A stretch of DNA of 64,000 bases from assembly GCA_003232725.1 (NCBI GenBank), contig QIJH01000218.1:3429-67428 (forward strand), read 5' to 3'. Below are positions 3,172-48,789 of the stretch, piece after piece; positions within the stretch are counted from its first letter, which is position 1; every line of letters starts with the position of its first letter. A program made the translations under genes and the position numbers. The DNA is from Chromatiaceae bacterium. GTDB taxonomy: Bacteria; Pseudomonadota; Gammaproteobacteria; SZUA-140. The notes below the pieces were generated by a model that did no database searches, had not been told where the DNA came from, and saw only the letters and a program-made list of their open reading frames with translations.

Positions 3172-3248
<77 letters not shown>

Positions 3249-21005: not shown

Positions 21006-21016
21006 TAGTAAACAGC

Positions 21017-21186
21017 TAGTAACTATTCAGTTCACTCCTGAAATTTGTCATTTCTGCATTGAAAAATGATCATTTACACCTGTAAACTCATATTTTTCGC
21101 CTTGCATCCGAGGGCATAAAGAAACTGCCAAATTTCAGCAGCAATCTGAATGACATGGCTCTCTTTCACTATGCTGAATAGTTACA
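21017..21186. repeat. MITE-like inverted-repeat element, long copy (about 170 bp)
   Basis: 5' end tagtaactattcagttcactcctgaaat and 3' end tatgctgaatagttaca are shared with the element at 46408-46479. The termini are inverted repeats of each other (gtaactattcag / ctgaatagttac). Intergenic, between ctpA and yibQ. Confidence 0.6.
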
Positions 21187-21212
21187 ACAGCTAAAATAAA
21201 TTAACATCAACC

Positions 21213-32094: not shown

Positions 32095-32216
32095 ACAGCC
32101 TTTCCTCCTTAATACAGGTTTTCGGAATATTATACAAATCATATATATCTCACTGTGCTATGATCTCTGCCACGGGTAAATCAGTCATATTCTAATATTT
32201 TTGCAAATGGTTCTAA

Positions 32217-33173
32217 TTGCAGTCAAGACGAAAAATGCGTGACCAAAATGAAATGGAAATTGATGATTCCGTCTATAAAACACTCCTGGAATCGACAAAT
32301 GCAATTCCATGGAAGATCGACTGGCAGAGCAAAAAGTTTACTTATATCGGCCCACAAATTGAATCCTTACTCGGGTGGTCAACATCAAGCTGGCACAGCG
32401 TTAACGACTGGGTTGAACGCATGCATCCTGACAACAGAGAATCTGTGGTTAATTTTTGCATTGCTCAATCACAGGCAGGCAACGACCATGAAGTGGATTA
32501 CCGCGCCCGAACAAAGGATGGCGGCTACATCTGGATTCGAGATGTCGTTCATGTCATTCGTAAAAATAACGAAGTTGAATCAATCATCGGCTTCATGTTT
32601 GATATTAGCGAACGAAAGAAAATTGAAGAGAAACTCATTCACCTACAAAAAGAACTCGAAGAACTCTCTTATAAAGACGCCCTCACCAACATCGCAAACC
32701 GCCGCATGTTCGATTCCATTCTCAAACGAGAATGGGCCAGCGCACAACGAAACCAGCAACCGATCGCACTCATCCTGCTAGATATCGACTTCTTTAAAGA
32801 GTACAACGATCACTACGGGCACATCATGGGTGACGACTGCCTGAAACAGGTCGCCAGGATATTAAGTAACGTCGCAACCAGGCCGCGAGACTTTGTGGCG
32901 CGCTTTGGCGGCGGGGAATTTGTGCTCGTTCTCTCTGATACGGATGAGGCATCAGCAATCAAAATCGCTGAAGAATGCCGCCGCGAAATCACTCAACATG
33001 CCATTCCTCACGCACAGTCAACTATCGGCCAAATACTCACCATTAGTGCAGGTGCGGGTGCCATCACACCATTAAAAAACGCTTGTCAAAAATATTTCAT
33101 CAGGCAAATCGACACCCTGCTCTATAAAGCGAAACTTCGCGGCAGGAATTGCGTTATCCACAAAGCATCATGA
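32217..33173 (+). CDS. PAS-domain protein with degenerate GGDEF domain (RFGGGEF)
   Basis: PAS fold (LLESTNAIPWKIDWQSKKFTYIGPQIESLLGW...DGGYIWIRDVV) then GGDEF domain (LTNIANRRMFDSIL...LILLDIDFFKEYNDHYGHIMGDDCLKQVA...ARFGGGEFVLVL). The signature is GGGEF rather than GG[DE]EF. Confidence 0.8.
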   Translation: MQSRRKMRDQNEMEIDDSVYKTLLESTNAIPWKIDWQSKKFTYIGPQIESLLGWSTSSWHSVNDWVERMHPDNRESVVNFCIAQSQAGNDHEVDYRARTKDGGYIWIRDVVHVIRKNNEVESIIGFMFDISERKKIEEKLIHLQKELEELSYKDALTNIANRRMFDSILKREWASAQRNQQPIALILLDIDFFKEYNDHYGHIMGDDCLKQVARILSNVATRPRDFVARFGGGEFVLVLSDTDEASAIKIAEECRREITQHAIPHAQSTIGQILTISAGAGAITPLKNACQKYFIRQIDTLLYKAKLRGRNCVIHKAS

Positions 33174-34510: not shown

Positions 34511-34536
34511 CCAGGTTCAACCAGGTAATACGGATC

Positions 34537-34562
34537 AGCCGACCTTCATGGTCGGCTTTTTC
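34537..34562 (+). terminator. Rho-independent terminator after ccp
   Basis: agccgacc-ttcat-ggtcggct hairpin followed by TTTTTC. Confidence 0.7.
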
Positions 34563-35056
34563 ATTCACGAAATTTCATTTAAATATGACATACTGGCAGT
34601 ACTTTATCACGAACCGCCGCCGCCCATCATAGCCTGCACTACCTGTTTCTTAAGCGGTATTTGCATCGCAGAATTGGCTCGTATCTTGAACGCCTTAATC
34701 AGATATATACGCAGACACACAATACTAGCCACAACCAAGTATCGCACATTTCTAGCGCCCCCAGCATGATTCACCATCATTGATTCTCTCACAAATAGAG
34801 TCAAAAAAATCCGACACGGCCTTACTCAAATAGCAGCGATTCTGCAACAAACCACCGCCCAGCTTCATATAAATAACGATATAAAAATTAATGGTTCTAT
34901 TCACATGGCCGCCGTAATACCACACCAAAACACCCGAAAAAACAACAATATATATAAATCTAATAGACCTTAAAGATAAAGAAGACAATTAACGATAACG
35001 AAAGCAATAGATCACAACAGCACTGACCACAATATAAATTTAAACAGCCAAACAGC

Positions 35057-35797
35057 GTGAATAAAAACCAGACAACACAGCAATCAGCCACGGATGAAAT
35101 CAATGATTTTATCGAACCTTGCTTTCTCAATAGCAATCGTTGGATAAACACACCAGTCAATAACAACATCGCAAAAATAGCACATTACCTGTCACATAAA
35201 ATTTCCAAAATACCACTGGATTTGACAAGCCATGCGCAACGGATTTCTCTTTACCGCCACCAAGATGATGCTGAAAGTACATATGCAGCACTATTAGATC
35301 TTTTCCTTGTACTTGGCAACAAAGGCCTGCCATTACGCAAGCGCCTACTACGGCAAGCAGCATCTGTCATCAGTGCAGAAAACTATGGTTTTTTATCAAG
35401 CACGCTGCCAACGGCATTGGTCATCACATGCAATACACCACTACCACACCTTTCCGCACTAAGTCTTGGTAGAACCAGAGAAAAAGAGATCATACGGAAA
35501 ACCGATGACGAGCAGTCAAAAAAAAAGGAAGCACCACTATTGATCGTGCGCGACCTACTTAATTCAGGACAAATATCACAGGCACAGTCAATTCTGGAAC
35601 TCGCACTGCTAGCCGCACCGGATAACAATGATCTTAGCAACGAACTACTGCAGATCTATCATCATACTCACGATAGAAGCGGCTGCATTCAAATGCTTAA
35701 AAAATTGTCATCAGCTGCATTAGCAGGCCGAGAGAAATGGGCAGAACTGATTATCACACTCGACCAGGACAGCACGGAGCGCTCACTCAGTGCATAA
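35057..35797 (+). CDS. hypothetical protein, helical/TPR-like C-terminus (first gene of candidate GTPase operon)
   Basis: 246 aa ORF with GTG start and no clear SD. C-terminal ...AQSILELALLAAPDNNDLSNELLQIYHHT... resembles a TPR/FimV-C-like helical hairpin. No family assigned. Confidence 0.4.
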   Translation: MNKNQTTQQSATDEINDFIEPCFLNSNRWINTPVNNNIAKIAHYLSHKISKIPLDLTSHAQRISLYRHQDDAESTYAALLDLFLVLGNKGLPLRKRLLRQAASVISAENYGFLSSTLPTALVITCNTPLPHLSALSLGRTREKEIIRKTDDEQSKKKEAPLLIVRDLLNSGQISQAQSILELALLAAPDNNDLSNELLQIYHHTHDRSGCIQMLKKLSSAALAGREKWAELIITLDQDSTERSLSA

Positions 35798-36680
35798 ACA
35801 GAAAACAACCAACCCTATTAGAGTGACCACACTCGGTCTCGATGAGCGCTCACAAGAGGTGCTGAGAATGGCTTTTTCAAGCGTCGCAAAGGGCGAGTGC
35901 GTTTTATCCGATACTGCCTCAGCAGATGTTGGTCTCTGTAATATGGATAGCCACAACGCAAATACATTATGGAGTAAAAATAAAACACACTATCCCGAGC
36001 GCCCTATGGTTGTGATTTCAGTCAAAAATCCACAACTTGAAAATTGCATGTATGTAGCAAAACCGATTAACATCACCATGCTTGTCGATGCAATCAAGGA
36101 TGCCTTTAGTAGCAGCGCCATGCAGCATTCAGTAGCTCATGCAGTCAATGGAATGCATGCCAGTACACAGGAGCTTCATCCGCTACCCCAGCAACCAGAG
36201 AAACACATTCAAGAGACATCCATGGGTTCTCCTCTAACACCTGAGGAACAATGGAATGATGAAGGCCACTCGAGTATCAACTACTACTCTCCAGCAGATT
36301 ACCTGCAAGAAGAGCTACAAAACTCTGCCACACAGGCAAGTGAGAGAAATCTATCCGCACAATACTCAGTCAAATTGAACGACACCTGGCTACACATCAC
36401 TATAGATCCAATTCATAATAAAGTGGTCTCTGAAATCAGCGATCAAATACTTGAGTCTCTGTGTACAACACCACGCTACTGTATTGAAACCAAATCAAAA
36501 TTTCTTAGCAAAAACAGATCCCACTTTGATGTCTACCGAGGAGACAAACCCTATCATGAATGCACCATCGCTCAATTCATTTGGAAGGTAGCGCTCTGGA
36601 CATCTGCTGGAAGACTATCAAAAGAGATGAGCCCATCAACACTGGCCGAATTTAACACGCCTGACACGCTCAAAAAATGA
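35790..36680 (+). CDS. receiver (REC)-like domain protein with unknown C-terminal domain
   Basis: N-terminal ~110 aa have CheY-like topology: IRVTTLGLDERSQEVLRMAF...ADVGLCNMDSHNA (Asp at the phospho-acceptor position)...PMVVISVKNP...YVAKPINITMLVDAIKDAF (KP motif). The acidic pocket is partly degenerate. Overlaps the previous gene by 8 nt. Confidence 0.45.
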   Translation: MHKQKTTNPIRVTTLGLDERSQEVLRMAFSSVAKGECVLSDTASADVGLCNMDSHNANTLWSKNKTHYPERPMVVISVKNPQLENCMYVAKPINITMLVDAIKDAFSSSAMQHSVAHAVNGMHASTQELHPLPQQPEKHIQETSMGSPLTPEEQWNDEGHSSINYYSPADYLQEELQNSATQASERNLSAQYSVKLNDTWLHITIDPIHNKVVSEISDQILESLCTTPRYCIETKSKFLSKNRSHFDVYRGDKPYHECTIAQFIWKVALWTSAGRLSKEMSPSTLAEFNTPDTLKK

Positions 36681-36942
36681 TATCAGGATAGCAGCGCTGC
36701 TCTCCGAACAGCCAGCTGCACCAGCCCTTATTTCCAAGGTACTTGGGATACCAATATCTCAAGTCTTTTCTTTTTACGCGGCAGCACATGCACTCAATTT
36801 AGCCATGCCAGTCGTGAATGTGACAAAAAAACCAGCGTTTAATATTCAACAAAAAAGCAAACATCATTCATTATTTAGCAAAATACTCGAAAAATTTGCT
36901 GGTTAACACTAAACCACCTACCCATAAAGACACCCTTCGATC

Positions 36943-37491
36943 ATGCCTGGAAACAATCATAAAATAATATTCACTGGCCCTGTGGGCGCAGGAAAGACAG
37001 CAGCAATTAGCGCCATTAGTGATATTGCCGTTTTAAAAACGGATGAAAATGCACAGGACATGACCAAGAAACGCAAGCAGACAACAACCGTAGCGCTAGA
37101 TTATGGGCTATTAAAACTAGGGGAAGGGGAAGGGGAACGCATTCACCTCTATGGCACACCCGGCCAGGAACGTTTCGACTTCATGTGGGACATATTAACC
37201 AATGGTGGCCTTGGCCTAATCCTACTACTTGACAACTCGCGCTCAACCCCTTTTAAAGACATGAGTTTTTTTCTTAACGCATTTCGTGATTTTATTTGCG
37301 ATAACAAAATGGTCATTGGGGTTACGCACATGGAATACAACGAAACATCAAAAATAGAGTCGTATCATCAACAGTTACATAAACATGGCATCAAAGCACC
37401 CATACTAGAAATTGATGCGCGAGAAAAAAACGATGTCGAAACGCTAGTCAAAACACTTCTTTACTCACTTGACCCATGGCTGGGGCAGTAA
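36943..37491 (+). CDS. small Ras-like GTPase, MglA-like
   Basis: 182 aa. P-loop KIIFTGPVGAGKTAAIS; switch I Thr (TTTVALDYG); switch II HLYGTPGQERF, like MglA's TVPGQ variant of DxxGQ. Size and organisation like MglA/CvnD-type GTPases. No clear canonical NKxD. Confidence 0.7.
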   Translation: MPGNNHKIIFTGPVGAGKTAAISAISDIAVLKTDENAQDMTKKRKQTTTVALDYGLLKLGEGEGERIHLYGTPGQERFDFMWDILTNGGLGLILLLDNSRSTPFKDMSFFLNAFRDFICDNKMVIGVTHMEYNETSKIESYHQQLHKHGIKAPILEIDAREKNDVETLVKTLLYSLDPWLGQ

Positions 37492-38177
37492 TGAGTCAAT
37501 ACGAACTGATCGATACAAGGTTTGTCTTACCATCACCCGCAGGCACATATTACGCCATATCAAACCATCAAGAAGAGCGCTCCAGAGGGCTGCTACTTGC
37601 TTTAATGACACAAGCAAACAGTCAAAGAATATCCACAGAGACGCTTTCGATTTGGCTAGACGATGACAACATTGAAACGTCATTGGCACTGCTTCACAAG
37701 ATTCAACAATTAGGCTGGCTTAGACCAGATGATGAACAATCATCGGCCCCGACCGGGGCACTTGAAGAAATAATACCACCGCTACTGGCAACATTATGCA
37801 ACACAGAAAAAACACTACTTGCCGATCACCAGGGCTTTACACTCGCCGCTCACGGATTTACTCACGAAGCAGCCGAAGAGCTATCGGCTCTCAGTGCAGA
37901 CCTCATCGCTCTGAGATTACGGCACGGAAGTTTGCTCACTAAAAACCTTAAACTTAATACGCAAGCCATCGGCCTTATTGATGCCGCAGGCAATAGCCAG
38001 CTAGGGTTCTGGCCACTGCATATTGGCAAGCACTGCTTTACATTGGTAATGAGTGGCATACCGCAATTTAATCAAACCAGTTTTACCAATTTAATTTGGC
38101 TACTAACGACTCGTTATGGATCAAATGACAATGCTGCCAATTTGTCAATTCACGAAATATTTTACACAGATAAATAG
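37491..38177 (+). CDS. hypothetical protein, possible tandem roadblock/longin-like partner (translationally coupled to GTPase)
   Basis: ATG overlaps the GTPase stop (TAATG). 228 aa. Second half (LLATLCNTEKTLLADHQGFTLAAHGF...AIGLIDAAGNSQLGFWPLHIGKHCFTLVMSG) has a roadblock-like alternation. Confidence 0.45.
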   Translation: MSQYELIDTRFVLPSPAGTYYAISNHQEERSRGLLLALMTQANSQRISTETLSIWLDDDNIETSLALLHKIQQLGWLRPDDEQSSAPTGALEEIIPPLLATLCNTEKTLLADHQGFTLAAHGFTHEAAEELSALSADLIALRLRHGSLLTKNLKLNTQAIGLIDAAGNSQLGFWPLHIGKHCFTLVMSGIPQFNQTSFTNLIWLLTTRYGSNDNAANLSIHEIFYTDK

Positions 38178-38239
38178 ACTGAGCGACAACTTATTCAATA
38201 TCATCTACCACAAAAATTTTGAAACAAGGAGTCAATATA

Positions 38240-38602
38240 ATGCGAGCTGACATTTTAAATTCTATTCTATCTGAGTTGAACGGCACTTCAGCTGAAATAG
38301 AAGCATCAGCCATCTTATCGACAGATGGCCTCATGATGGCATCAATGCTGCCTGCTGGAATGGATGAAGATCGAGTGGGTGCAATGGCTGCGGCCATGCT
38401 CTCGCTCGGCGATAGAACATCTGAAGAACTCGCACGCGGTGGACTTGAACAAGTACTGATAAAAGGAGAAAAAGGCTACGTTTTGATGACGCATGCGGGT
38501 GATGAATCAGTACTATCAGTACTTGCCAAACCAAGCGCGCGCCTTGGGCTAATATTTTTAGATGTAAAACGTGCTGCAGAATCAATTGAGAAGCTGGTTT
38601 AA
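38240..38602 (+). CDS. Roadblock/LC7 domain protein (MglB-like)
   Basis: MRADILNSILSELNGTSAEIEASAILSTDGLMMASMLPAGMDEDRVGAMAAAMLSLGDRTSEELARGGLEQVLIKGEKGYVLMTHAGDESVLSVLAKPSARLGLIFLDVKRAAE is a textbook Roadblock/LC7 signature. AAGGAG RBS 8 nt upstream. Confidence 0.78.
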   Translation: MRADILNSILSELNGTSAEIEASAILSTDGLMMASMLPAGMDEDRVGAMAAAMLSLGDRTSEELARGGLEQVLIKGEKGYVLMTHAGDESVLSVLAKPSARLGLIFLDVKRAAESIEKLV

Positions 38603-38626
38603 ACCAATCACGACAGGAAAACTCAC

Positions 38627-39097
38627 ATGAAAGACATGATGCCTGACAATATTTCCGGCGAGTACCAAGAACATCTATTCAGCTACCATGATGGTACTCA
38701 GCGAAAAGCCCTTTTCACCAACATCGAAACACAACTACCAGAAGGCCGCCTGATTGTTTCTCGCACAAATACCGATGGCATCATTATTGATGTAAACCAG
38801 CCATTTATTGAAATGTCCGCTTATCATAAAGATGAGTTAATCGGCCAACCTCATTATATTCTTCGCCATCCAGATATGCCTGCCGCCGCATTTAGCGATC
38901 TCTGGAAAATGGTTCAACAGCGAAATAAATGGCATGGATACGTCAAAAATCTTCGCAAAGACGGTGGCTTTTATTGGGTATATGCGACCGTTATCGCAAA
39001 CATTCGGAAGGGTGACATCACTGGCTTTACATCTGTTCGCCGCCGTGCCTCGCGCGCTAAAATTAATGAAGCCGAAATTCTTTATCAAACTTTATAA
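38627..39097 (+). CDS. stand-alone Aer-type (FAD-binding) PAS domain protein
   Basis: RLIVSRTNTDGIIIDVNQPFIEMSAYHKDELIGQPHYILRHPDMPAAAFSDLWKMVQQRNKWHGYVKNLRKDGGFYWVYATVIANIRKGDITGFTSVRRRAS closely parallels the Aer N-terminal PAS (GQPHN.VRHPDMP.AAF.D.W...G.PW.G.VKNR.K.G..YWV.A.V.P). No transmembrane or output domain. Confidence 0.8.
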   Translation: MKDMMPDNISGEYQEHLFSYHDGTQRKALFTNIETQLPEGRLIVSRTNTDGIIIDVNQPFIEMSAYHKDELIGQPHYILRHPDMPAAAFSDLWKMVQQRNKWHGYVKNLRKDGGFYWVYATVIANIRKGDITGFTSVRRRASRAKINEAEILYQTL

Positions 39098-39111
39098 CAG
39101 GATCATCAACC

Positions 39112-39858
39112 ATGACCCACAACTTCACCGTCAGTCCAGACTTTAATCCAGGCCATATATCTGGTTGGTACATCTTCAATACATGGCTTCAACGCACCAT
39201 CAATGAAGAGCTCCACCTGGAACTCTACAATAGCGCTAGCGAACAACGAAAAGCGATCGCTGATGACCGGGTAGATTTAATTTATGCCAACCCTTATGAC
39301 GCGACAGCACTGGTAAGAGACAAGGGGTTTTTCCCTGTTGCACGTGCTGACAACAAAACAGACGAGGCCATCATCGCTGTCAATCATGAAAGCCCAATCC
39401 TCAATGTTGAACAACTCACAGATGGCACCAGAATTTCCAGCACCGATGACCCGGACGTACGCATGATGTGCATGATCATGCTTGAGCCTGCAGGGTTAAA
39501 TAAAAGTAACACCTCTACCACACAACGTGATGCTTACATTTTGATTGCCAAAGATCTTTTAAAAAACGACGCCGACGTTGGTTTCTTTCTCGAAGAGACA
39601 TACAACGAACTCTCAGACATGACAAAAAAACAATTAAGACCTATTGTGCACAGCCAAATTCATGTCATCCACCATCTACTGCTTGTCGGTCCTAAATTAG
39701 CACACAAAAAAGATGACATACAATCATCACTCCTTTCAATGGCTGATGACTCAAAAGGAGTCGGCGTATTAAAAAACCTGAACTTCGAACGCTGGGTAGC
39801 GGTTGAGCAGGAAGAAGCCGAATTCATGATTGACTTAATGGACACATTAGCCGAATAA
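39112..39858 (+). CDS. PhnD/SsuA-like (phosphonate-binding family) periplasmic-binding-fold protein lacking a signal peptide
   Basis: 248 aa. DLIYANPYDATALVRDKGFFPVARAD...AIIAV pattern of Phosphonate-bd/PBP type 2. N-terminus MTHNFTVSPDFNPGH... is not a signal peptide. Confidence 0.6.
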   Translation: MTHNFTVSPDFNPGHISGWYIFNTWLQRTINEELHLELYNSASEQRKAIADDRVDLIYANPYDATALVRDKGFFPVARADNKTDEAIIAVNHESPILNVEQLTDGTRISSTDDPDVRMMCMIMLEPAGLNKSNTSTTQRDAYILIAKDLLKNDADVGFFLEETYNELSDMTKKQLRPIVHSQIHVIHHLLLVGPKLAHKKDDIQSSLLSMADDSKGVGVLKNLNFERWVAVEQEEAEFMIDLMDTLAE

Positions 39859-39880
39859 CATTTCAGCAGACTGATGACAG

Positions 39881-41008
39881 CTATTGCTTAGATGCCTCTT
39901 TTTTAGAGTCGCGCAACCGCTGAAGTTTTTCAAGTATACGTTCCGCCCGACCAATATGCTCTAGCGCCTGCTCGTTGTCGGGTGCCAGTGCTAGCGCATT
40001 TTCCCAGGTACCTATTGCCTTCATATACTGTCCCTCTCCGTAATACTCGACACCCAGGGCAATACTCTCTTTCACCTGTTTATCCAGAAGAAAACTCAAC
40101 TGCTGTGCAAGCTCAATCTCACTCTCATTCAAATTACCTAACAACTTCAACCTGACAACATAATCTAATGCCCTAGTCAGCTCATTATTATTGACAGCCT
40201 TAAGCAAAGACACATTGAGAATTTTTTGCATCTTCCGTCTACTTTCAATCACAATTTGTTGCTGTCTGCGCTCATTTTCCACCTGGGACTGTAACTTTTC
40301 ATTCTCGATTTCTTGCTGTTGTTTCGCCAATAGCAGCTGACTCTCCACGACTGTTTGCTTAAGCTCGCCTATCATCGGCACTGGATTAAGCTGCCAGGCA
40401 AGGCTAAGCAACTCTTCCGCATGGAGGAAATCATCCTGTTCCAAGGCTGCTCGTCCATGTTCAGCAAGCAATTTAGCAACTTTCTTTGATTTATCTTTAT
40501 CTCTTTTCCAGCGGCCCTCTTTTAGCCAACTACCTGGGGTAATCAACGCCAACTCTTCCTGAACACTAATCGTATTACTCAACCACTCCGCTTGCATCAC
40601 TAACAAGTCCAATTCCAGTGCCGCAACCCGAATATTCTGTTTAAAATGCAGCGCCTGAAATGCTGAGTTAATCTTTTCACTATCTGGAATATTATTTAAT
40701 GCGGTTTGGTAGTATCGCTTGGCACGATACCACTCTCCTGCCTTCTCAAGCGCCCTGCCCTCCTCCAGTGTCTGCTGCTCATATATAACTGCCTGCTTAT
40801 CAATACCAGCGATTAACGCATTCACACTTGAATAGTCAGCGTGCGACTCAGGCACATGAGAAAGCACCACTTGCGCTTGTGCATACCGATCCCCCTCGAC
40901 AAGAGAGTCCACCTTTTCTAATACATTAGACGAACGCGCATCCATATACGCACAACCCTGTACAAATATCACCAACAAAATGAGAAAGGCTAATTTCACA
41001 TTTTTCAT
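39881..41008 (-). CDS. TPR-repeat lipoprotein
   Basis: Signal peptide with lipobox (LILLVIFVQGC). Multiple TPR-like repeats (AQ..LS...Y..AL, GEWYRAKRYYQTALNN, GQYMKAIGTWENALALAPDN). 4-nt overlap with the upstream cyclase gene. Confidence 0.65.
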   Translation of the reverse strand: MKNVKLAFLILLVIFVQGCAYMDARSSNVLEKVDSLVEGDRYAQAQVVLSHVPESHADYSSVNALIAGIDKQAVIYEQQTLEEGRALEKAGEWYRAKRYYQTALNNIPDSEKINSAFQALHFKQNIRVAALELDLLVMQAEWLSNTISVQEELALITPGSWLKEGRWKRDKDKSKKVAKLLAEHGRAALEQDDFLHAEELLSLAWQLNPVPMIGELKQTVVESQLLLAKQQQEIENEKLQSQVENERRQQQIVIESRRKMQKILNVSLLKAVNNNELTRALDYVVRLKLLGNLNESEIELAQQLSFLLDKQVKESIALGVEYYGEGQYMKAIGTWENALALAPDNEQALEHIGRAERILEKLQRLRDSKKEASKQ

Positions 41009-42477
41009 GTCGATACGGATACGTCGCCAGTATTCACAACCGTCGATATTGCATCATCGATCATCGCCTGCTGTTTTTCATCAACACCGCTCACATGGTA
41101 AGTCACCAGCGCTTCTTTTTTTCCTTTTAGTGAAATTTTCTTAAAGCGAGTACTAACGATACCCTGAGATTGCAGTGTAACATTCAGTTCATCACTAATT
41201 AGAATTTCGCCAGCATCCGCCGCAGAGGCAAGGCGTGATGCAGTATTAACCGCATCACCAACGACCGTATAGTCCATTCGCTCGGCAGCGCCCATATTAC
41301 CAGCCAGCATCATGCCACTATTAATACCAATTCTAAAACGAACTTGCGTCAAATTATCATTCGCCCTCTGGCGGTTAACTATTTTAACTAGCTTTTGAAT
41401 CGTAATCGCACATGCAGCCGCATGAAAGCTATGCTTGGCATCATCCTCCGGCACACCAAAGACAAGCATCGCACAATCGCCTATGTATTTATCAATATGC
41501 CCACCATAGCAATGTGCTGCCTGCGCAATAATACTAAAGTACTCATTCAGAAGACTATTCACCTGCTCCGGATGTAGCTCTTCCGAAAGCCGCGTAAAAC
41601 CAACGATATCTGCAAACAAAACACTCGCCTCAACATGATGCCCTCCCAACTTCACCTGGTTCAGGTTAGACAATACCGCCTTAGCTACTTTCGGTGAAAC
41701 GTAACGTGAAAATGTCTGCTCCACTTGCTCTTTACGTAACAGCCCTTCCGTCATTTCATTCATCGACTGCATCAGTGAACCCAACTCATCTTTGCGCTGA
41801 TCATTAAGGCGAACATGATAATCACCAGCCGAAATTGCACGGCCAGCATTAATCAATTGATGTATAGGGCGAGTTAAACGCTTACCCAATATAAAAGATG
41901 CTATAAAACCCAGAATCACTAACAACAATGTCGCGCCACCTACCGTGCGAATGGTCTCTTGCTGTGCCAACGTTCTTAAGCGTTGATCAAAAGTAATGAG
42001 CACATAACCTGTCGTCACATCCTTAAAAAACACCGGCTTGAAAAATGAAACCATATCAAGCGGCTCAGGAGCAACGCTATTTTCCTGCCATTCCAGTTTA
42101 ATTACACGCCCTAAGGCAGTGGCAATACGGTGGTCGTCCGGCACTGCACCCTTTTTCACCACCAGCTCTTTGTTCTCATTGTAAAGAGCTGCGCCAAGAA
42201 TCCCAGCTTCACCTGCAAGACTGTTCACCACAATCTCAAGATTAAGGTGATCATTGGCTAATAAGGGTTCACGGGAAAAGCCGGCCATCAACCTTAAAAC
42301 CGTATTTCCCGACTCACTCACCTGCTGCTCAAGAATATTACTTTGGTTGTGGACAATGAACAGCCCCAACAAACTCATCCCGCAACTAATCAATAAAGTA
42401 AAGACTAATGAGAGTTTATAGGCAATAGGGAAGTATGCCGGCAAAAATGCTGTCAGATTTTGGCGTAACTTTTTCAT
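41005..42477 (-). CDS. membrane sensor adenylate/guanylate cyclase (2TM periplasmic sensor - HAMP - class III cyclase)
   Basis: Two TM segments flanking a ~150 aa periplasmic region, HAMP (ILGKRLTRPIHQLINAGRAISAGDYHVRL), CHD cyclase domain (VLFADIVGFTRLSEELHPEQVNSLLNEYF...IGDCAMLVFGVP...RIGINSGMMLAGNMGAAERMDYTVVGDAVNTASRL). Confidence 0.85.
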   Translation of the reverse strand: MKKLRQNLTAFLPAYFPIAYKLSLVFTLLISCGMSLLGLFIVHNQSNILEQQVSESGNTVLRLMAGFSREPLLANDHLNLEIVVNSLAGEAGILGAALYNENKELVVKKGAVPDDHRIATALGRVIKLEWQENSVAPEPLDMVSFFKPVFFKDVTTGYVLITFDQRLRTLAQQETIRTVGGATLLLVILGFIASFILGKRLTRPIHQLINAGRAISAGDYHVRLNDQRKDELGSLMQSMNEMTEGLLRKEQVEQTFSRYVSPKVAKAVLSNLNQVKLGGHHVEASVLFADIVGFTRLSEELHPEQVNSLLNEYFSIIAQAAHCYGGHIDKYIGDCAMLVFGVPEDDAKHSFHAAACAITIQKLVKIVNRQRANDNLTQVRFRIGINSGMMLAGNMGAAERMDYTVVGDAVNTASRLASAADAGEILISDELNVTLQSQGIVSTRFKKISLKGKKEALVTYHVSGVDEKQQAMIDDAISTVVNTGDVSVST

Positions 42478-42903
42478 TAAGTTTCAGAGACTACCATCAC
42501 TACTCAGTTTTAAACACGTACGGCTGGGGCAACCTGACACCTTGCGTTACCAATAAGCCCGCCATCTCTCCATTTCAACAAACCAGCTTAACACTAGATA
42601 TATCGATAAAATTATATTAATCGATACTCCCCTATAAACCCTCTTTAAAGTCACAGTAGGTACAAAACACCAGCCACCCTACCAAACAACCGATCCAGCC
42701 CGTAAAACATACATCTAATTTATCTGGACTCAGCCAGATCGATACCAGACATCATGCACCATATAACGCAATTTATACAGCGACACCTGTAAACCAGCAC
42801 CTCTCATAAACCCCAAAACCATCTCACTGAGTGACTGGCAATCGTCGACGAATTATGTTGAGATTATTAAAGCCATTTCGCAGCCATAATATTTGGAGGA
42901 GTC

Positions 42904-43176
42904 ATGACAATGATATATACCAATGACCTGCTCGACGAACTTAATATCCTGCTGCAATTCAATCTAGCAACGACTCAGGAAGGGATTAAAATCCACCGTT
43001 CAGCGGGTACCACTACCATCGATGCCACCACACGCTTATTTAATAAAGGGCTCATCACTCAAACCGATGGGGGCTATCTCACTGATTTAGGACATATTGC
43101 TGCCGAACATGCTCAGAGCAGTTACACCATCCTGACACCCGCCCATGAATCATCACTAAAGCCAGCCTCAATGTAA
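42904..43176 (+). CDS. hypothetical protein (90 aa)
   Basis: Strong RBS GGAGGAG 4 nt upstream of ATG. MTMIYTNDLLDELNILLQFNLATTQEGIKIHRSAG.... No Cys, no C-terminal GG. Family unknown. Confidence 0.5.
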   Translation: MTMIYTNDLLDELNILLQFNLATTQEGIKIHRSAGTTTIDATTRLFNKGLITQTDGGYLTDLGHIAAEHAQSSYTILTPAHESSLKPASM

Positions 43177-43286
43177 ACGATACATCAACTATATAAAATA
43201 GCGAAAATGGTGCGATAAGGCCATTCAAGATGTGGCTGCTTTCATCTTAATAAACCATCCTATGAGCGCAATAAGGGACTAAAACG

Positions 43287-43892
43287 ATGAAAATCCAGGT
43301 GTTAACCAAAAAATTGCATGAACTCAAAGAAAAACAGCAGCAGATCGAAACGGCCTGGCGTAAAACAGGCAATCGTGAATTTCTTGAATTCATGGTGGAA
43401 TTACTCCCAAAAGCACTCAACGCAGAACGCTGCAGTATTTTCATCAACAATCCTGACAATAATAACGTCTGGATTCAATGTGGCACAGGGCTTCAGGAAA
43501 AACAGATCTCTGTACCCAAAGATAGCTCCATAGTCGGCAAAGTGATCGCCAGCGGTGAGATTATCATGGAAAACAACCTCGCCAATCAAATAGGTGCGCA
43601 CGACACAATCGCCTTTAAAACCGGTTTTACCTCTAAAAGCACCATCTGCGTGCCCGTATTAGGGGCAAAAACACAGCAGGTAGCGGGCGCCATTCAGGTG
43701 CTGAATAAACTCAATGCCGAATCTGCATTTACCCAGAACGACATTGAAATTGTCAAAAAACTAGCCCACCACCTCCAGGTCAATATCGAGAATATCTACC
43801 AACGCCAGGAGATGGCCAATATTGCTGCAGAGATCGGCAAGAAAGTGAGTCTCATCGAAGCCAAGCTAAAATCACTTGGGCATACAGAATAA
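43287..43892 (+). CDS. stand-alone GAF domain protein
   Basis: 201 aa. ...AERCSIFINNPDNNNVWIQCGTGL...SIVGKVIASGEIIMENNLANQ...TKSTICVPVLGAKTQQVAGAIQVLNK fits the GAF fold. Short coiled coil at both ends. Confidence 0.7.
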   Translation: MKIQVLTKKLHELKEKQQQIETAWRKTGNREFLEFMVELLPKALNAERCSIFINNPDNNNVWIQCGTGLQEKQISVPKDSSIVGKVIASGEIIMENNLANQIGAHDTIAFKTGFTSKSTICVPVLGAKTQQVAGAIQVLNKLNAESAFTQNDIEIVKKLAHHLQVNIENIYQRQEMANIAAEIGKKVSLIEAKLKSLGHTE

Positions 43893-44128
43893 CCCAATAC
43901 AGTGCCAGATGCATATATACAAATGGATTTAACAACCCTCGTCGTCAGGATCAGCAATGCTTTCTCCCCTAAAGATTTGTATACTAAGCAAACTTTATCA
44001 GCATACCGGTTAAGTATTCACGGGTTAACACCCACTGACAATGCGTGACATAACAAGACAGCGAACAATCAACAGAGGCTATGTGTTCGTTAGCAGACAA
44101 TCGCTAACTCGCTAGCCAGAGGAAGAAG

Positions 44129-45319
44129 ATGAAGGCCAAAGACCGCCGAATACAGGAACTGCGTGACACCATTACCGAGCTTTCACCGACCGAAGCGTAC
44201 GAGCTACAACAAAATGGTGCCACCTTGATCGACGTACGTGATAACGAAGAAGTTGCACAGGGCAGCCCAATTGGCGCACTACGTCTGGGGCGCAGCTTCC
44301 TTGAGCTCAAAATCGAAGAGCAGATCCCAGACACCGACCAAACCTTAATCATTATGTGTGCGGGCGGGATGCGTTCACTGTTCGCTGCCGATGGCCTGCA
44401 ACGCATGGGCTACAGCGATGTACGCTCGGTTGCCGGAGGCTTTAGCCACTGGAAAACAGAGGCACAGCCGTTTGAAATGCCGCGCATGCTTGACGCCACC
44501 GCGCGTGAGCGTTATGCCCGCCACCTCTCAATCCCCGATATTGGCGACAAAGGCCAGCTCAAACTACTCGACAGCAAGGTACTGCTGATCGGTGCCGGTG
44601 GCCTCGGCTCACCCAGCGCCTATTATCTAGCTGCAGCAGGTGTCGGTACCCTCGGCATCATCGATGATGATGTGGTGGACCGCAGCAACCTGCAGCGCCA
44701 GATTCTGCACACCGAAGATCGCATCGGCATGCCCAAGGTTGAATCGGCACGCATTGCGCTGGAAGCACTCAACCCGGACGTCAAGGTTGTCGCGCATCAA
44801 ACCCGTATCGATAGCAGCAATGTAGAAGCGCTCTTTGCCGATTATGACGTCATCGTCGACGGCTCAGACAACCTGCCCACCCGTTACCTGATCAACGACG
44901 CCTGCGTAAAGCTTAAAAAGCCCAATGTACACGCCGCCGTCTACCGCTTTGAAGGGCAGATCACTGTCTTCTGGCCAGATTACCAGGGCGACGTGCGCGG
45001 CTCCTGTTACCGTTGCATGTTCCCTGAGCCACCACCGCCAGAACTCGCGCCATCATGTGCGGAGGCTGGCGTACTGGGTGTGATGCCGGGTCTCTTTGGC
45101 CTGCTACAGGCGGTTGAGACAATCAAGATTCTACTCGAAATCGGTACACCACTAGTTAACCGCATGTTGCATTACGATGCACTTAGTGGCGAGTTTATGG
45201 AGATGAACGCCAAGGCCAACCCATCCTGTCGCCATTGCAGCGACGGTGCGGTGTTTCCTGGCTATGAAGACTATGCACAGATCTGCTCATCAACACCGCC
45301 GCCATCTGACGACAAATAA
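44129..45319 (+). CDS. E1-like adenylyltransferase of ThiF/MoeB family with N-terminal rhodanese domain and C-terminal CxxC...CxxC
   Basis: N-terminal rhodanese (active Cys in IIMCAGGMRS), then ThiF/MoeB Rossmann (VLLIGAGGLGSPSAYYLAAAGVGTLGIIDDDVVDRSNLQRQILH, active-site Cys in PSCAEAGVLG). Zn motifs CYRC and CRHC. Domain order is reversed relative to MoeZ/MOCS3. Confidence 0.85.
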   Translation: MKAKDRRIQELRDTITELSPTEAYELQQNGATLIDVRDNEEVAQGSPIGALRLGRSFLELKIEEQIPDTDQTLIIMCAGGMRSLFAADGLQRMGYSDVRSVAGGFSHWKTEAQPFEMPRMLDATARERYARHLSIPDIGDKGQLKLLDSKVLLIGAGGLGSPSAYYLAAAGVGTLGIIDDDVVDRSNLQRQILHTEDRIGMPKVESARIALEALNPDVKVVAHQTRIDSSNVEALFADYDVIVDGSDNLPTRYLINDACVKLKKPNVHAAVYRFEGQITVFWPDYQGDVRGSCYRCMFPEPPPPELAPSCAEAGVLGVMPGLFGLLQAVETIKILLEIGTPLVNRMLHYDALSGEFMEMNAKANPSCRHCSDGAVFPGYEDYAQICSSTPPPSDDK

Positions 45320-45325
45320 GCAAAC

Positions 45326-45355
45326 CCATCGCCACGTTAAATAGCGCGGCGATGG
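45326..45355. terminator. hairpin between convergent genes (8-bp stem ccatcgcc/ggcgatgg)
   Basis: Inverted repeat with 14-nt loop. No strong U-tract. Confidence 0.35.
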
Positions 45356-45364
45356 TCTTCTCAA

Positions 45365-45862
45365 TCAATCCTTGTTTCTAACCGTCTCTACGCCAAAAAA
45401 TAGCACCATCTGATCGCCAATCGCTGGCAATGCAAAGTTCATATCAAAATCTGAACGCTTGAATTTAGCAGTGACATCAAAGCCACACACGTACTTCTCT
45501 TTTTTTAGGGTCCAGCGGGTGGACACCACAATGAATACTTTCCACTTCCAGCACAGCATGCTTTGTCACACCCAGGATGGTTAAATCACCCTAGGAGCCA
45601 TCTTGCCTCCTTTATGAAACTCAACGGTCTTCGCTTGATAGGTGATCGCCGGAAACTCCATCGCATTCAGAAAGTCGATTGAACGCAGGTGGTCGTCACG
45701 TTTCCCCATGCAGGTATAAACGGACGCCGCATCGATCACAATATCAATCGAGCCTATGCTCGCCTTTCGATCCATCGTGCCGCACAATGCGCTCGCGCCT
45801 ATTGACGCCCTATTCCCCTTATGAAGGCGGAACAGGTTAAAAATAGACCGCTTACTCTGCAT
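45365..45862 (-). pseudogene. yceI: YceI-family (polyisoprenoid-binding) protein pseudogene: N-terminally truncated, at least two frameshifts
   Basis: Three frame pieces: ...IDAASVYTCMGKRDDHLRSIDFLNAMEFPAITYQAKTVEF; GDLTILGVTKHAVLEVESIHCGVHPLDPKK; KEKYVCGFDVTAKFKRSDFDMNFALPAIGDQMVLFFGVETV. Joined, they reproduce the YceI fold order. One shift falls in an A7/T7 run (45497-45505). The N-terminal signal-peptide region is absent. Confidence 0.65.
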
Positions 45863-46327
45863 CTAACGATAATATTTTTGCCACTCGTCTTTCGTGATTT
45901 TATACAGGACATGCTCTCTAAGGGGGTTACCCTCTGGAATAATAGGATGTTCAAAATTATCACCGGTGTCTGTCATTCCCAGGCGCGTCATCACTTGCCA
46001 TGATTTTTTATTGGTGACAGATGCAAACGAATAGAGCTTATCGAGCCCTAGCTCAGTGAAGGCAAACCTCATCGCCTCTTTAGCTGCCTCTGAGGCATAG
46101 CCACGCCCCCAGAATTCACTTCTCAAACGTCAACCAATTTCGACACAGCGCGATACTGGCAAGTCGTAGGTAGGCTTGTGCAGCCCGACAAAGCCGATGA
46201 ACTCTCCATCCACAATGGTTTCAGCAGCCCAGAGCCCCCACGATCTCTCTGTTATAAGCCGCTTTATTTTTTCAGCCATGGCATCACTCTCTTCACGGCT
46301 CAAAGTATTGGGGTAATACTTCATCAC
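45863..46327 (-). pseudogene. GNAT N-acetyltransferase (RimJ/RimL-like) interrupted by a single in-frame TGA at a conserved Trp position
   Basis: The 65-codon piece (..SWGLWAAETIVDGEFIGFVGLHKPT...CVEIG) and 87-codon piece (RLRSEFWGRGYASEAAKEAMRFAFTELGLDKLY...) are contiguous in the same frame, separated only by TGA where the EIGW.L motif expects Trp (TGG). Confidence 0.7.
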
Positions 46328-46407
46328 CTGTAACTACTCAGCGAGTAGTCAAAATTAACAGTGACTGCTCAGCTAACCCATCAACTCCCAGCATCTCATA
46401 AAAAATT

Positions 46408-46479
46408 TAGTAACTATTCAGTTCACTCCTGAAATCTGAATAGTTATATACCCATCTTCCATTATGCTGAATAGTTACA
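46408..46479. repeat. MITE-like inverted-repeat element, short copy (72 bp)
   Basis: Same 28-bp 5' end and 17-bp 3' end as 21017-21186. The interior is reduced to a second partial TIR copy (ctgaatagttata). Confidence 0.6.
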
Positions 46480-46911
46480 AAATTTATTATGCGCTACCCC
46501 GACAACATACTCTGTTTTATCTTCCAAGCACCCCTGTCAACTCGTAAATAATTTAAAGAGGAATGGACAGCGACGCTCCCGGGTTTCGCTTGCGCTCAAC
46601 CCAGGCTACACATATCAAATACCGTCATTCCGGCCAATAAGAATGGTGGGGGGGTGCCGGGATCAGGGTAAGCTGATCTCTGGTCCCAATCAATTCCAGC
46701 ACAAAACTTGATGAGCACTCGCAATAACACACCAATAAAAACTTAAACCTACTTGTTTTGAATGTAGCTGAGTGCTAGTTTAACGAAAAGGCCATCTATT
46801 TTTGAGCGGCGTAAAAATGCCCTAAATATACAATGTATGGCTGTCATATATCACAACCACACACGGCTGCATATCAACCGCTAATTCACTTAGCGATAGA
46901 GGAGTATCAAA

Positions 46912-46983
46912 TTGGATCTATTAATAGCAATCATCATCGTTTGGATTGGCTGGCTAATATTCCGACGCAAAGAAAAAAAGTAG
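46912..46983 (+). other. candidate small hydrophobic peptide (23 aa, TTG start)
   Basis: GAGGAG SD 7 nt upstream of TTG. Encodes (M)DLLIAIIIVWIGWLIFRRKEKK*, one TM helix plus basic tail, reminiscent of type I toxin / small membrane peptides. Unverified. Confidence 0.25.
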
Positions 46984-47045
46984 GGTATAGCAGGTTAAAT
47001 TTCACCATCAATACAAGTCGTATACCCAAGTAAATCTCTACCTGC

Positions 47046-47267
47046 CTGGATCAACTCATCAAGCAACATTTTAGCCGAACTAAACATGAGACTGGCATTG
47101 CGGAACTAATGCTACAAGGGTAGCCAGCCAAACGCATCGCAATAAAAACCAATGTCAGCCACGAGACGGTTAGATGGTATATAAAAAAGATCTGTGCAAA
47201 AAACCACTCGAATTCTCAAGCTGAATTTATCGTAAAACACTCCGCGGACTCGCTTCAAGCGCCTTAA
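47046..47267 (+). pseudogene. LuxR/GerE-type HTH remnant with in-frame TAG
   Basis: Reads LDQLIKQHFSRTKHETGIAELMLQG*PAKRIAIKTNVSHETVRWYIKKICAKNHSNSQAEFIVKH. This is the canonical LuxR C-terminal HTH (LT.RE.EI...G.S.KEIA..L.IS..TV..H...I..KL.V.....A), with a stop at 47121 and no upstream regulatory/receiver domain. Confidence 0.55.
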
Positions 47268-47361
47268 CTACAACCACATAGAGATTCACTACAAAGATAA
47301 ATCCAGGAAATACTTAACCCTTAGGAGGTACGAAGTATATAAAGCCAGTCATCACAGGGAA

Positions 47362-47814
47362 TCATTCAAAAACCACATCTTTATCTTTGATTGAAAATAC
47401 CAATTCGGAGACAATCTCAACACCCCTCTTCAGCTTGGGCAAGCCGACGCAACCACTCCAACGTGCTTTAGGCGCAAGTACTTTATGCTGTGAATAAATC
47501 TGATAGCCAGGAACTGCAAGATCATCGCTAAAACCCACTTGACGGGCAACAATATTCCACTCGACCAATGTGATCGTTTTATCACTAAAATTATCAACTG
47601 TTATTTTAAGTGGTGACGATCCGTCACAACTCCCCAACGAATACTCAACCGATACAGCCACCGCCTCAATTACTTTTTTTTCTGTCCAGTCCTGATAATA
47701 TAAAAACCCACCAATAGCACTTCCCGCCAACACCAACATACCAAGACCACCAAACATTTTCTTTGGAAAAATGATAAATAACGATAAGACTATCGCGATA
47801 ACCAGCCACTTCAT
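47362..47814 (-). CDS. hypothetical membrane-anchored protein (150 aa)
   Basis: Two N-terminal hydrophobic helices (MKWLVIAIVLSLFIIF..., GLGMLVLAGSAIGGFLYY), then soluble domain. No family recognised. Confidence 0.5.
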   Translation of the reverse strand: MKWLVIAIVLSLFIIFPKKMFGGLGMLVLAGSAIGGFLYYQDWTEKKVIEAVAVSVEYSLGSCDGSSPLKITVDNFSDKTITLVEWNIVARQVGFSDDLAVPGYQIYSQHKVLAPKARWSGCVGLPKLKRGVEIVSELVFSIKDKDVVFE

Positions 47815-47919
47815 GAATAACTCTCGATTTCACACATCATTTAAAAAGGAAGCAATACTCGAACAATAAACCATGCAGAAATTCAGCGTGAAGCATTACC
47901 TGGTCAAATAAAAACTACT

Positions 47920-48747
47920 TCACCATCGGTATCCACGGGCCAAAGCACGTGTAGAAAACTCTCGATCCTTCAAACCAACATTGACTTCAATATCTCGAGC
48001 ATCATAAACAATCGTTGAATTTGCCCTGAAGTTTTTCACAATCCCGGTCTCCCATACCCATGCCCCTTTGATTCGGCGCCAGGTGATAAACTGCTTTTTG
48101 ACCATCTTCATCTCTTTATCAAAATAGTCAACGCGACTTTCAAGGCAGTGTTCCCAATTTTCACCCTTACTAAACCATGAGATACGTTTTCCATAGACAG
48201 GATCATGTTTAGGAACACTTTCAACAATATAGAACACCTTTCCTTCCACGGTTCGTTCTTCAACGAAACGGTGTTCATCTTCATTGATATCACGCACCCG
48301 CAGGTCATCATCACTAAAGCCCCAATCCATCTCCTCAGGCGAACGTTTCGAGATTCGCTTTACAATACGCATCTCTGGCAAATAGACCCACTGATCTGCA
48401 AGCCTGTCGCTGCCATTAACATACCCCCAGCGCATAAAAGCCAATCCCTTGTTATGCGCTGATGCCGTGTAAAGCACGACTTTGTCGACGATGCCATCTT
48501 TACCGCCATAGTTTTTCCACAAACGCACATATTCACTGGAGACTTTTCGACCATTGGTAAGTGTACTGGTAACCAGCAAACGGGAACGCTGATCTTCCCC
48601 GCCATTTTTGTAATAACAATGCTCAACTATTTCAATACCACTTAATGGCCTGGTTATTTCAGTGCGCACTTCTGCCGCAAACGCAAATGGATAAAACAGC
48701 GCCAGAATTACCACTGAGATCACCTGATTAATGACTTGATGATTCAT
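47920..48747 (-). CDS. LolA-like outer-membrane lipoprotein-sorting family protein (secreted)
   Basis: Signal peptide (VISVVILALFYPFAFA). QWVYLPEMRIVKRIS...FSDDDL...FYIVESVPK...NVGLKDREFSTRALARG matches the LolA_like/outer membrane lipoprotein-sorting family pattern. Confidence 0.6.
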   Translation of the reverse strand: MNHQVINQVISVVILALFYPFAFAAEVRTEITRPLSGIEIVEHCYYKNGGEDQRSRLLVTSTLTNGRKVSSEYVRLWKNYGGKDGIVDKVVLYTASAHNKGLAFMRWGYVNGSDRLADQWVYLPEMRIVKRISKRSPEEMDWGFSDDDLRVRDINEDEHRFVEERTVEGKVFYIVESVPKHDPVYGKRISWFSKGENWEHCLESRVDYFDKEMKMVKKQFITWRRIKGAWVWETGIVKNFRANSTIVYDARDIEVNVGLKDREFSTRALARGYRW

Positions 48748-48789
48748 ATCTTACATAACTCCATTCTGCCGCCATTCGTTGAACCGGTC

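Follow-up and report, generated by a model that had tools for sequence, protein, structure and literature searches.

A conserved GTPase/Roadblock signalling operon between small hot spots of gene turnover probably accounts for an island-like, AT-rich segment between ccp and lnt in a Chromatiaceae bacterium

Group 3 MglA systems of beta- and gamma-Proteobacteria combine a receiver-like/winged helix-turn-helix (wHTH) protein, a homologue of MglA and one or two homologues of MglB, and in their GTPases the G4 motif has no lysine and G5 reads DAR (Wuichet and Sogaard-Andersen, 2014; PMC4316618). An operon resembling these systems lies in a stretch of 64,000 nucleotides of a Chromatiaceae bacterium, an uncultured gammaproteobacterium of marine or hydrothermal origin (assembly GCA_003232725.1, contig QIJH01000218.1, positions 3,429 to 67,428), hereafter the window, within a segment at 34563-48789 that separates ccp from lnt. 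An earlier note, made from the sequence alone, had regarded this segment as an old, ameliorating island or a variable chromosomal region. The segment does share with integrative genomic islands a lower GC than its surroundings, signalling or accessory-looking genes, and pseudogenes together with a miniature inverted-repeat transposable element (MITE) at one edge. However, it differs from them in having no integrase, tRNA, att repeats or empty site in relatives, and in having a clade-wide core, a housekeeping gene in its interior and an oligonucleotide signature that does not deviate. The comparison reported here shows a conserved signalling block of known but uncharacterised kind that is largely ordinary, and rather than one inherited unit, the segment as a whole is probably a mosaic in which genes that are stable across the clade are framed by two small hot spots of turnover, at the point where two housekeeping blocks meet.

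Gene order among relatives carries this reading. Scanning genomes with Lnt retrieved nine close loci (L001-L009), in which Lnt identity is 95% for L001 (SZUA-128), 93% for L008 (D96SM.bin.20), 91% for L009 (Thiotrichaceae NORP103) and 77-84% for L002-L007; loci L081-L097 were obtained through homologues of ccp and of the 233-aa operon protein. On the ccp side, the block ubiB-SCP2-ubiE-...-hslU-hslV-xerC-DUF484-dapF-trmO-(variable slot)-ccp is kept in L081-L087, L092 and L097, and in these loci the operon comes after ccp wherever the contig continues. In L084-L086, L089-L091 and L092, ccp is followed by the seven operon genes, a TPR gene, a cyclase gene and a DUF5669 gene, and L089-L092 present the whole series from ccp through GAF and MoeB to an intact YceI gene; the operon starts in the same way in L081-L083 and L097, after inserts of 7 kb and 5.4 kb, respectively. 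The order ccp, operon, cyclase, DUF5669, GAF, MoeB is the same in all relatives whose ccp is at least 84% identical (L081-L086, L089-L092 and L097). It is supported from the lnt side by L008 and L009, which are collinear with the window over 37.5-51 kb at ~83-89% nucleotide identity, save for 45.3-47.4 kb. Since gene order is kept in all relatives with ccp at 84% or more, the island reading fails for 35.06-45.3 kb, the earlier note having itself named a shared gene order among relatives as the observation that would speak against an island. It had also proposed asking whether ccp and lnt are neighbours elsewhere. They are adjacent in no relative examined, and no close relative has an empty site at the ccp/lnt junction.

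On the lnt side, the conserved block reads sec150-LolA-like-lnt-corC-ybeY-phoH-miaB, and it begins earlier than composition would suggest. The LolA-like gene (47920-48747, minus strand; Pfam LolA_like at 1e-27), which codes for a periplasmic protein with a signal peptide, adjoins lnt in nine of nine relatives with Lnt at 77% or more, and sec150 (47362-47814, minus strand), which codes for a 150-aa membrane protein with N-terminal hydrophobic helices read from its translation, adjoins the LolA-like gene in L001, L002, L003, L005 and L008. Both were formerly listed as secreted proteins belonging to the segment; the description suits the LolA-like protein, but the 150-aa product reads as a membrane protein. 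Because the two genes travel with lnt in the more distant relatives (L002-L007), they are part of the lnt block, and the synteny boundary therefore lies at ~47.35 kb and not at 48.79 kb, where the segment had been made to end. Indeed, L002 and L003 diverge from the window at ~47344, and L004, L006 and L007 at ~47.9 kb. Past its breakpoint, L002 continues with a response regulator, a TRAP transporter, cysDN and DegP, L007 with HNH, a sensor kinase and a hydantoinase, and L004 with an M23 peptidase and an ABC-3C domain protein. The same slot of L004, past lnt and the LolA-like gene (L004 10667-11428), holds a defence-type protein with HNH_2 and CTD11 (ABC-three-component system) domains.

Gene turnover is confined to small patches, namely trmO/ccp at 31.2-33.4 kb, ccp/operon at 34.56-35.06 kb and MoeB/sec150 at 45.3-47.36 kb, the last of which contains the MITE and all of the decay found outside the operon and differs in every relative examined. 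The view of the locus as a variable chromosomal region thus holds for small junction patches but not for the conserved core at 35.06-45.3 kb. As in chromosomal plasticity hot spots, alternative gene sets occupy one intergenic slot, and insertion sequences (IS) or MITEs accumulate there with decaying genes; we see no essential difference between the three patches and hot spots at synteny-block junctions. The ccp/operon junction (34564-35056), the first hot spot of the segment, is non-coding in the window, in agreement with the earlier description of 34.56-35.06 kb as nearly devoid of coding capacity (no open reading frame, or ORF, above 78 aa in 34511-35056), and represents the empty one of five states encountered among the relatives. 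The empty state recurs in L089, whereas the slot holds a PEP-CTERM protein in L084-L086 and a GGDEF gene in L092. In L081-L083 it is filled by 7 kb that include a DDE transposase, Tlde1, a SymE toxin, GGDEF and a second ccp; a second ccp is also part of the 5.4 kb present in L097 and, as far as its contig reaches, L087, together with a cytochrome-bd-like gene and a sigma-54 activator. By tblastx, the L081 insert is equivalent to window positions ~34672-34766. In this junction (L081 11223-18565; L097 11342-16400), the second ccp is diverged, at 59-60% identity. The trmO/ccp slot of the window holds a low-GC pair (31261-33173) made of a 293-aa protein (minus strand, no Pfam match) and a PAS-GGDEF diguanylate cyclase, which is common to the window and L092 only; other genes take its place in L084, L087 and L097, and the slot contains a 114-aa ORF, a dienelactone hydrolase or a 600-aa protein in other relatives. 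Where relatives allow a comparison, at 27.7-34.5 kb and 47.3-54.2 kb, all ORFs that were queried are intact.

The compositional step that drew attention to the segment is real. It begins at a probable intrinsic terminator of ccp (34537-34563, plus strand), which consists of an 8-bp GC-rich stem (hairpin at 34537-34557) and a T tail, and in 1-kb windows GC falls from 0.513 (33.5-34.5 kb) to 0.410 (34.5-35.5 kb), as had been claimed. The GC of 34563-48789 is 0.448 vs 0.489 for the remaining window, and mean gene GC at third codon positions (GC3) is 0.44 inside vs 0.51 outside (Mann-Whitney p = 3e-4). Although these means are lower, the segment is not the single AT-richer unit of ~14 kb that had been proposed: the MoeB/ThiF gene at 44129-45319 reaches a GC of 0.559 and a GC3 of 0.61, the tracts at 13-17, 31-33 and 54-57 kb have a GC as low as that of the segment, and the lowest-GC 14.2-kb windows of the whole stretch start at ~29.9-30.2 kb instead of 34.56 kb, because the low-GC tract actually spans 31-43.5 kb with ccp interrupting it. 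Tetranucleotide usage corrected for base composition does not deviate (distance 0.156 inside vs 0.151 outside the segment) and has its maximum at 23-27 kb, outside the segment. The composition plots suggested by the earlier note hence give a divided answer, lower GC and GC3 in the segment but an unchanged corrected signature.

The GC dip comes mainly from the seven-gene operon. Operon GC3 lies below flank GC3 in every genome examined, including those in which the genomic context is different: about 0.41 vs about 0.51 in the window, 0.39 vs 0.52 in L092, about 0.48 vs about 0.58 in L084, 0.46 vs 0.61 in Methylobacter and 0.57 vs 0.64 in Sedimenticola. Furthermore, the GC step is just as sharp in relatives at ~88% nucleotide identity, and therefore no trend of amelioration is visible. 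We infer that the low GC is probably gene-intrinsic, may reflect a weak GC3 codon bias of low-abundance regulatory genes, and would be no mark of foreign origin.

The operon consists of seven genes on the plus strand. Gene 1 (35057-35797) codes for a 246-aa protein with a weak TPR-like C-terminus (Pfam TPR_19, below cut-off) and evolves fast, with identities of 82% to L081 and 51-59% to L084, L089, L092 and L097. Gene 2 (35790-36903), recognized by tblastn in two frames and by DNA alignment, codes for a conserved protein of ~377 aa that is frameshifted here; its N-terminal domain is receiver-like, its C-terminal region is helical, and a disordered linker connects the two. The AlphaFold2 (AF2) model of its orthologue P0242 has the same layout, with the disordered linker at residues 112-167 and a moderate mean predicted local distance difference test score (pLDDT) of 68; its Foldseek matches are receiver domains, and a winged-helix match for the helical C-terminus was not returned. 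The frameshift is due to a 17-bp deletion at ~36638 relative to L081, L084 and L092, as a consequence of which the ORF stops at 36680 (296 aa), the N-terminal 284 codons standing in one frame and the C-terminal 89 codons in another. Since these out-of-frame 89 codons are still 88% identical to L081, the deletion appears to be very recent, polymorphic or an assembly error; an identical 296-aa product is already on record (P0241). It would take away the predicted DNA-binding tail of the protein.

Gene 3 (36943-37491) codes for a small Ras-superfamily GTPase of 182 aa and of the MglA/CvnD type (Pfam ATP_bind_1, Ras and Roc; PDB matches to Rab and MglA at E about 1e-4), whose translation contains the P-loop GPVGAGKT, the G3 motif GTPGQ, a G4 motif THME without lysine (GVTHMEY) and a G5 DAR (LEIDAREKN). 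Gene 4 (37491-38177) codes for 228 aa without any Pfam match. Its AF2 model (pLDDT 86) combines an N-terminal helical domain with a C-terminal Roadblock/MglB-like fold that Foldseek matches to Roadblock, MglB and Ragulator structures at probability 1.0, and one UniRef name among its homologues is "Roadblock/LC7 domain-containing"; on this modelled fold its product is predicted to be a second MglB-type partner. Among the homologues of gene 4, identity falls off gradually (100, 82, 71...45%) through Thiodiazotropha, Sedimenticola and Methylococcales, that is, sulfur-oxidising and methanotrophic Gammaproteobacteria. Gene 5 (38219-38602; Pfam Robl_LC7 at 2e-17), a Roadblock/LC7 (MglB-like) gene, is the most conserved of the operon (95-99% inside the clade, 76% to Methylobacter), and its PDB matches are a Thorarchaeota Roadblock and CvnB5 (3leq, E = 1e-10). 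Gene 6 (38627-39097; Pfam PAS_3, PAS_9 and PAS) codes for a stand-alone PAS sensor protein, and gene 7 (39112-39858; PF12974 at 2e-33) for a PhnD-like protein of the phosphonate-binding family with a solute-binding fold. Methylobacter (L093 and L094) and Sedimenticola (L095) have all seven genes in identical order, the former among biotin/pentose-phosphate genes and the latter among tol-pal/queCE genes. In the Methylobacter loci, an inserted protoglobin gene (L093/L094 11223-11780) separates the Roadblock gene of the operon from the PAS gene, which hints at gas or redox sensing as input.

By gene content and by its G4 and G5 motifs, the operon fits the published, uncharacterised Group 3 MglA architecture. 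This group is delimited by a small (<240 aa) MglA-family GTPase, one or two MglB/Roadblock genes at most four genes away, and a lysine-less G4 with a DAR G5; here, gene 3 encodes 182 aa, genes 4 and 5 follow it, and its translation contains both motif variants. The likeness extends to the direct adjacency of the GTPase and the two MglB/Roadblock genes, to the gammaproteobacterial host and to the presence of a conserved protein whose N-terminus is receiver-like and whose linker is variable. On the other hand, unlike Group 3 MglA as described, the operon is a fixed seven-gene unit that adds TPR-like, stand-alone PAS and PhnD-like proteins, it is linked in this clade to a HAMP-cyclase and a GAF protein, and its output protein is frameshifted in this genome. 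A second described relative is the actinobacterial conservon (CvnA-D/Mfp), with which the operon shares a GTPase whose best Pfam match is PF03029 (ATP_bind_1), its combination with Roadblock in a conserved multi-gene signalling operon, and the above-mentioned similarity of its Roadblock protein to CvnB5. Gene order, partners and phylum differ, however, and profile searches with Pfam and NCBIfam returned no HATPase/HisKA and no DUF742 match in any of the seven genes. The conservon was rejected as the family of the operon, there being neither a CvnA-type histidine-kinase-like sensor nor CvnC (DUF742).

Taken together, we infer that the operon is probably a G-protein switch, in which signal sensing would fall to the PAS protein and the PhnD-like binding protein, control over the nucleotide state of the GTPase to the two Roadblock proteins, and output to the receiver-like protein, whose tail is predicted to bind DNA; the adjacent cyclase and GAF protein suggest a cyclic-nucleotide branch. 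We put forward only tentatively, as a possibility more doubtful than not, that the operon constitutes a distinct, uncharacterised G-protein sensory system that forms a fixed unit across sulfur-oxidising and methanotrophic Gammaproteobacteria, possibly with a HAMP-cyclase/GAF branch and recombining first genes in this clade.

The nearest rival to the mosaic reading, an old horizontally acquired island between ccp and lnt that is slowly ameliorating to host composition, is unlikely. The segment lies below its flanks in GC and GC3, as an island might, but its corrected tetranucleotide signature is unremarkable, the step does not soften at ~88% nucleotide identity as amelioration would have it, a GC-rich housekeeping MoeB gene sits inside, and a right end placed by composition at 48.79 kb takes in two genes of the lnt block. 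Both ends are variable, with IS, MITE and toxin debris in some relatives, yet neither shows the features of an integration boundary: Pfam searches on all ORFs detected no integrase or mobility gene at a segment border (the sole tyrosine recombinase of the window is the housekeeping xerC at 27753-28721), no tRNA lies by the segment (the only one in the window is tRNA-Met at 3172-3248), and no direct repeats bound it. Rfam searches at gathering thresholds likewise returned only the tRNA-Met at 3172, and no riboswitch or sRNA in the segment. The absence of an integrase or tRNA flank, already remarked on in the earlier note, is hence borne out. Acquisition would also explain why ccp at 75% identity (L096) adjoins an unrelated context and why Lnt at 77-84% (L002-L007) adjoins unrelated genes, and it could account for the higher AT content of the operon relative to its flanks in three orders and in different contexts; against this stand the lack of any empty site, ccp and lnt never being adjacent, and the core order conserved in all relatives with ccp at 84% or more. 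A more restricted version, in which the seven-gene operon alone is a mobile or frequently exchanged module, spread by homologous recombination or transfer among Gammaproteobacteria, and the rest is native, is quite improbable. The mosaic of identities speaks for it. Identity of L092 to the window is 88-95% in ccp, the cyclase, GAF, MoeB and the flanks, but only 56%, 47% and 67% in operon genes 1, 2 and 4, respectively; in L081, whose ccp is more distant (90%), genes 1 and 2 are at 82% and 77% (window 35057-38177 vs L092 7544-10699 and L081 18566-21058). This pattern points to either allele exchange or very fast evolution, and genes 1, 2 and 4 may simply evolve fast. Similarly, the unrelated neighbourhoods of the operon in Methylobacter, Sedimenticola and this clade and its consistently AT-richer composition are what such a module could produce, but it occupies the same position in all clade members, has no mobility genes attached, and its identities to Methylobacter and Sedimenticola (57-77%) are not above the few flanking housekeeping benchmarks vs more distant Gammaproteobacteria, of which there are two only (MiaB, 74-75% to L010 and L011; Lnt, 42-46% to Methylococcales metagenome-assembled genomes, or MAGs).

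A chimeric metagenome contig joining DNA of two populations with different GC is barely credible. The source is a metagenome contig (P0121 and P0241 lie on a 72,789-bp JGI, i.e., Joint Genome Institute, contig), and the contig of the closest relative, L001, ends within the variable patch; nonetheless, the joins ccp-operon, operon-cyclase-MoeB and MoeB-sORF-sec150-lnt recur in the independent assemblies L008, L009, L084, L089 and L092, for which reason a chimeric assembly was rejected. Several observations do weigh against the mosaic of stable genes that we favour. An operon that is AT-richer than its flanks and has a different neighbourhood in each order is also expected of a repeatedly transferred module, and the L092/L081 identities suggest recombinational exchange of alleles within the supposedly stable core. 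Only the window, L008 and L009 show MoeB/YceI joined to the lnt block; that block has other neighbours in L002 and L003, and the segment therefore ends at a genuine rearrangement breakpoint. The context of the relatives consists of 10-kb flanks of draft MAGs, beyond the reach of which the core may lie elsewhere in the L002-L007 lineages. Finally, the 17-bp deletion in gene 2 could be a population variant or an assembly error.

The remainder of the stable core follows the operon. A TPR lipoprotein-like gene (39881-41008, minus strand; Pfam TPR_1 and TPR_2) and a gene for a membrane-bound HAMP/class III adenylate or guanylate cyclase (41005-42477, minus strand; Guanylate_cyc 7e-33, HAMP 2e-13) are convergent to the operon and overlap by 4 bp; judged from this arrangement, they are probably co-transcribed. 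Next come a DUF5669/TIGR02647 family gene (42904-43176, plus strand; Pfam and TIGR profile matches) and a gene for a single-domain GAF protein (43287-43892, plus strand; Pfam), the latter duplicated in L089-L091. The last core gene (44129-45319, plus strand), which codes for a Rhodanese-ThiF protein and had been counted among the accessory genes, matches the MoeB equivalog (molybdopterin-synthase adenylyltransferase) NF006444 of NCBIfam over residues 4-388 with 600.8 bits vs a cut-off of 449. GC-rich and conserved at 92-96% among relatives, it is a housekeeping MoeB and not an accessory gene. In other respects the gene identities read from the sequence were right, as confirmed by Pfam for the small GTPase, Roadblock, PAS, HAMP/class III cyclase, GAF, Rhodanese-ThiF and LolA-like products, and for the yceI, GNAT and GerE/LuxR fragments.

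The patch at 45.3-47.36 kb contains the remains of three genes. The yceI pseudogene (45362-45779, minus strand) has lost its first ~57 codons, and at least two frameshifts interrupt what is left. Its counterparts in L009, L089 and L092 are intact (195 aa); L008 lacks the gene. A GNAT acetyltransferase gene (45863-46327, minus strand), interrupted by one in-frame TGA (46130-46132) that splits it into two same-frame ORFs matching Acetyltransf_3, is present in no relative at this site. Of a LuxR/GerE-type protein, only the C-terminal helix-turn-helix remains (47070-47267, plus strand), with an in-frame TAG at 47121-47123 and a Pfam GerE match of 1e-6 on the stop-masked translation. All three decayed genes had been recognized previously and are real, but a fourth, operon gene 2 (35790-36903), had been missed. 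The patch also holds a conserved element of ~270 bp (46717-46983, plus strand), common to the window, L008 (13270-13536), L009 (12482-12751) and L092 (19975-20244), which is made of a conserved leader of ~200 nt and a small ORF of 23 codons (46912-46983) and has no Rfam family match. This ORF has a TTG start, a strong Shine-Dalgarno sequence GAGAGGAG and a hydrophobic product MDLLIAIIIVWIGWLIFRRKEKK, and the alignment of the four copies displays synonymous CGA/AGG and GGA/GGC changes, which suggest that it is translated.

The MITE in the same patch is genuine, as had been proposed. The 69-bp, internally deleted copy B (46410-46478; 46402-46486 with duplications) has a perfect 12-bp terminal inverted repeat (TIR; GTAACTATTCAG / CTGAATAGTTAC) and a perfect 8-bp target duplication AAAATTTA, and a longer copy of 167 bp with the 8-bp duplication AACAGCTA is located at 21019-21185 (21011-21193 with duplications), such that the inverted repeat, the target duplication, the small size without an ORF and the multiple copies of a MITE are all in evidence. 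Its GTAA ends and 8-bp duplications presumably resemble IS66-family ends. The end sequence is found in none of the first 97 loci fetched, all close-relative loci included; pairs of ends spaced 125-155 nt apart occur on at least 120 metagenome contigs (L098-L217) of widely different GC (0.33-0.69), from gut, soil, freshwater and marine samples. The 8-bp target duplication is perfect in 53 of 122 metagenome elements, the interiors of which are largely unrelated, and a metagenome scan with 26 nt (the MITE end plus internal sequence) found nothing because only the 12-bp ends, and not the internal sequence, are conserved. A parent transposase was not found in the fetched loci, where TIR pairs 0.6-4 kb apart enclose ordinary genes, and literature matches to the TIR string were unrelated primers only. 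In L159 (1695-5191), two MITE copies enclose a DUF6268 gene and a two-component pair (histidine kinase and LytTR response regulator). A single 8-bp duplication GATTGTTC brackets the whole 3.5 kb, and the arrangement resembles a composite transposon that has MITEs as its ends and no transposase.

Pseudogenes and a MITE close to a clear drop in GC are thus no proof of an island, and the dip described here is that of a conserved regulatory operon whose GC lies below that of its surroundings in three orders. The practical value of this result is modest, amounting to improved annotation and a note of caution for composition-based island callers. For an uncultured lineage of marine sulfur-oxidisers, the analysis provides a precise map of three small hot spots of gene turnover. 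It also puts a seven-gene MglA/Roadblock operon, a member of an experimentally untouched class of G-protein signalling systems, in a comparative frame together with a natural frameshift allele. Should the operon indeed be a distinct G-protein sensory system, the window would display a natural knock-out of its output protein.

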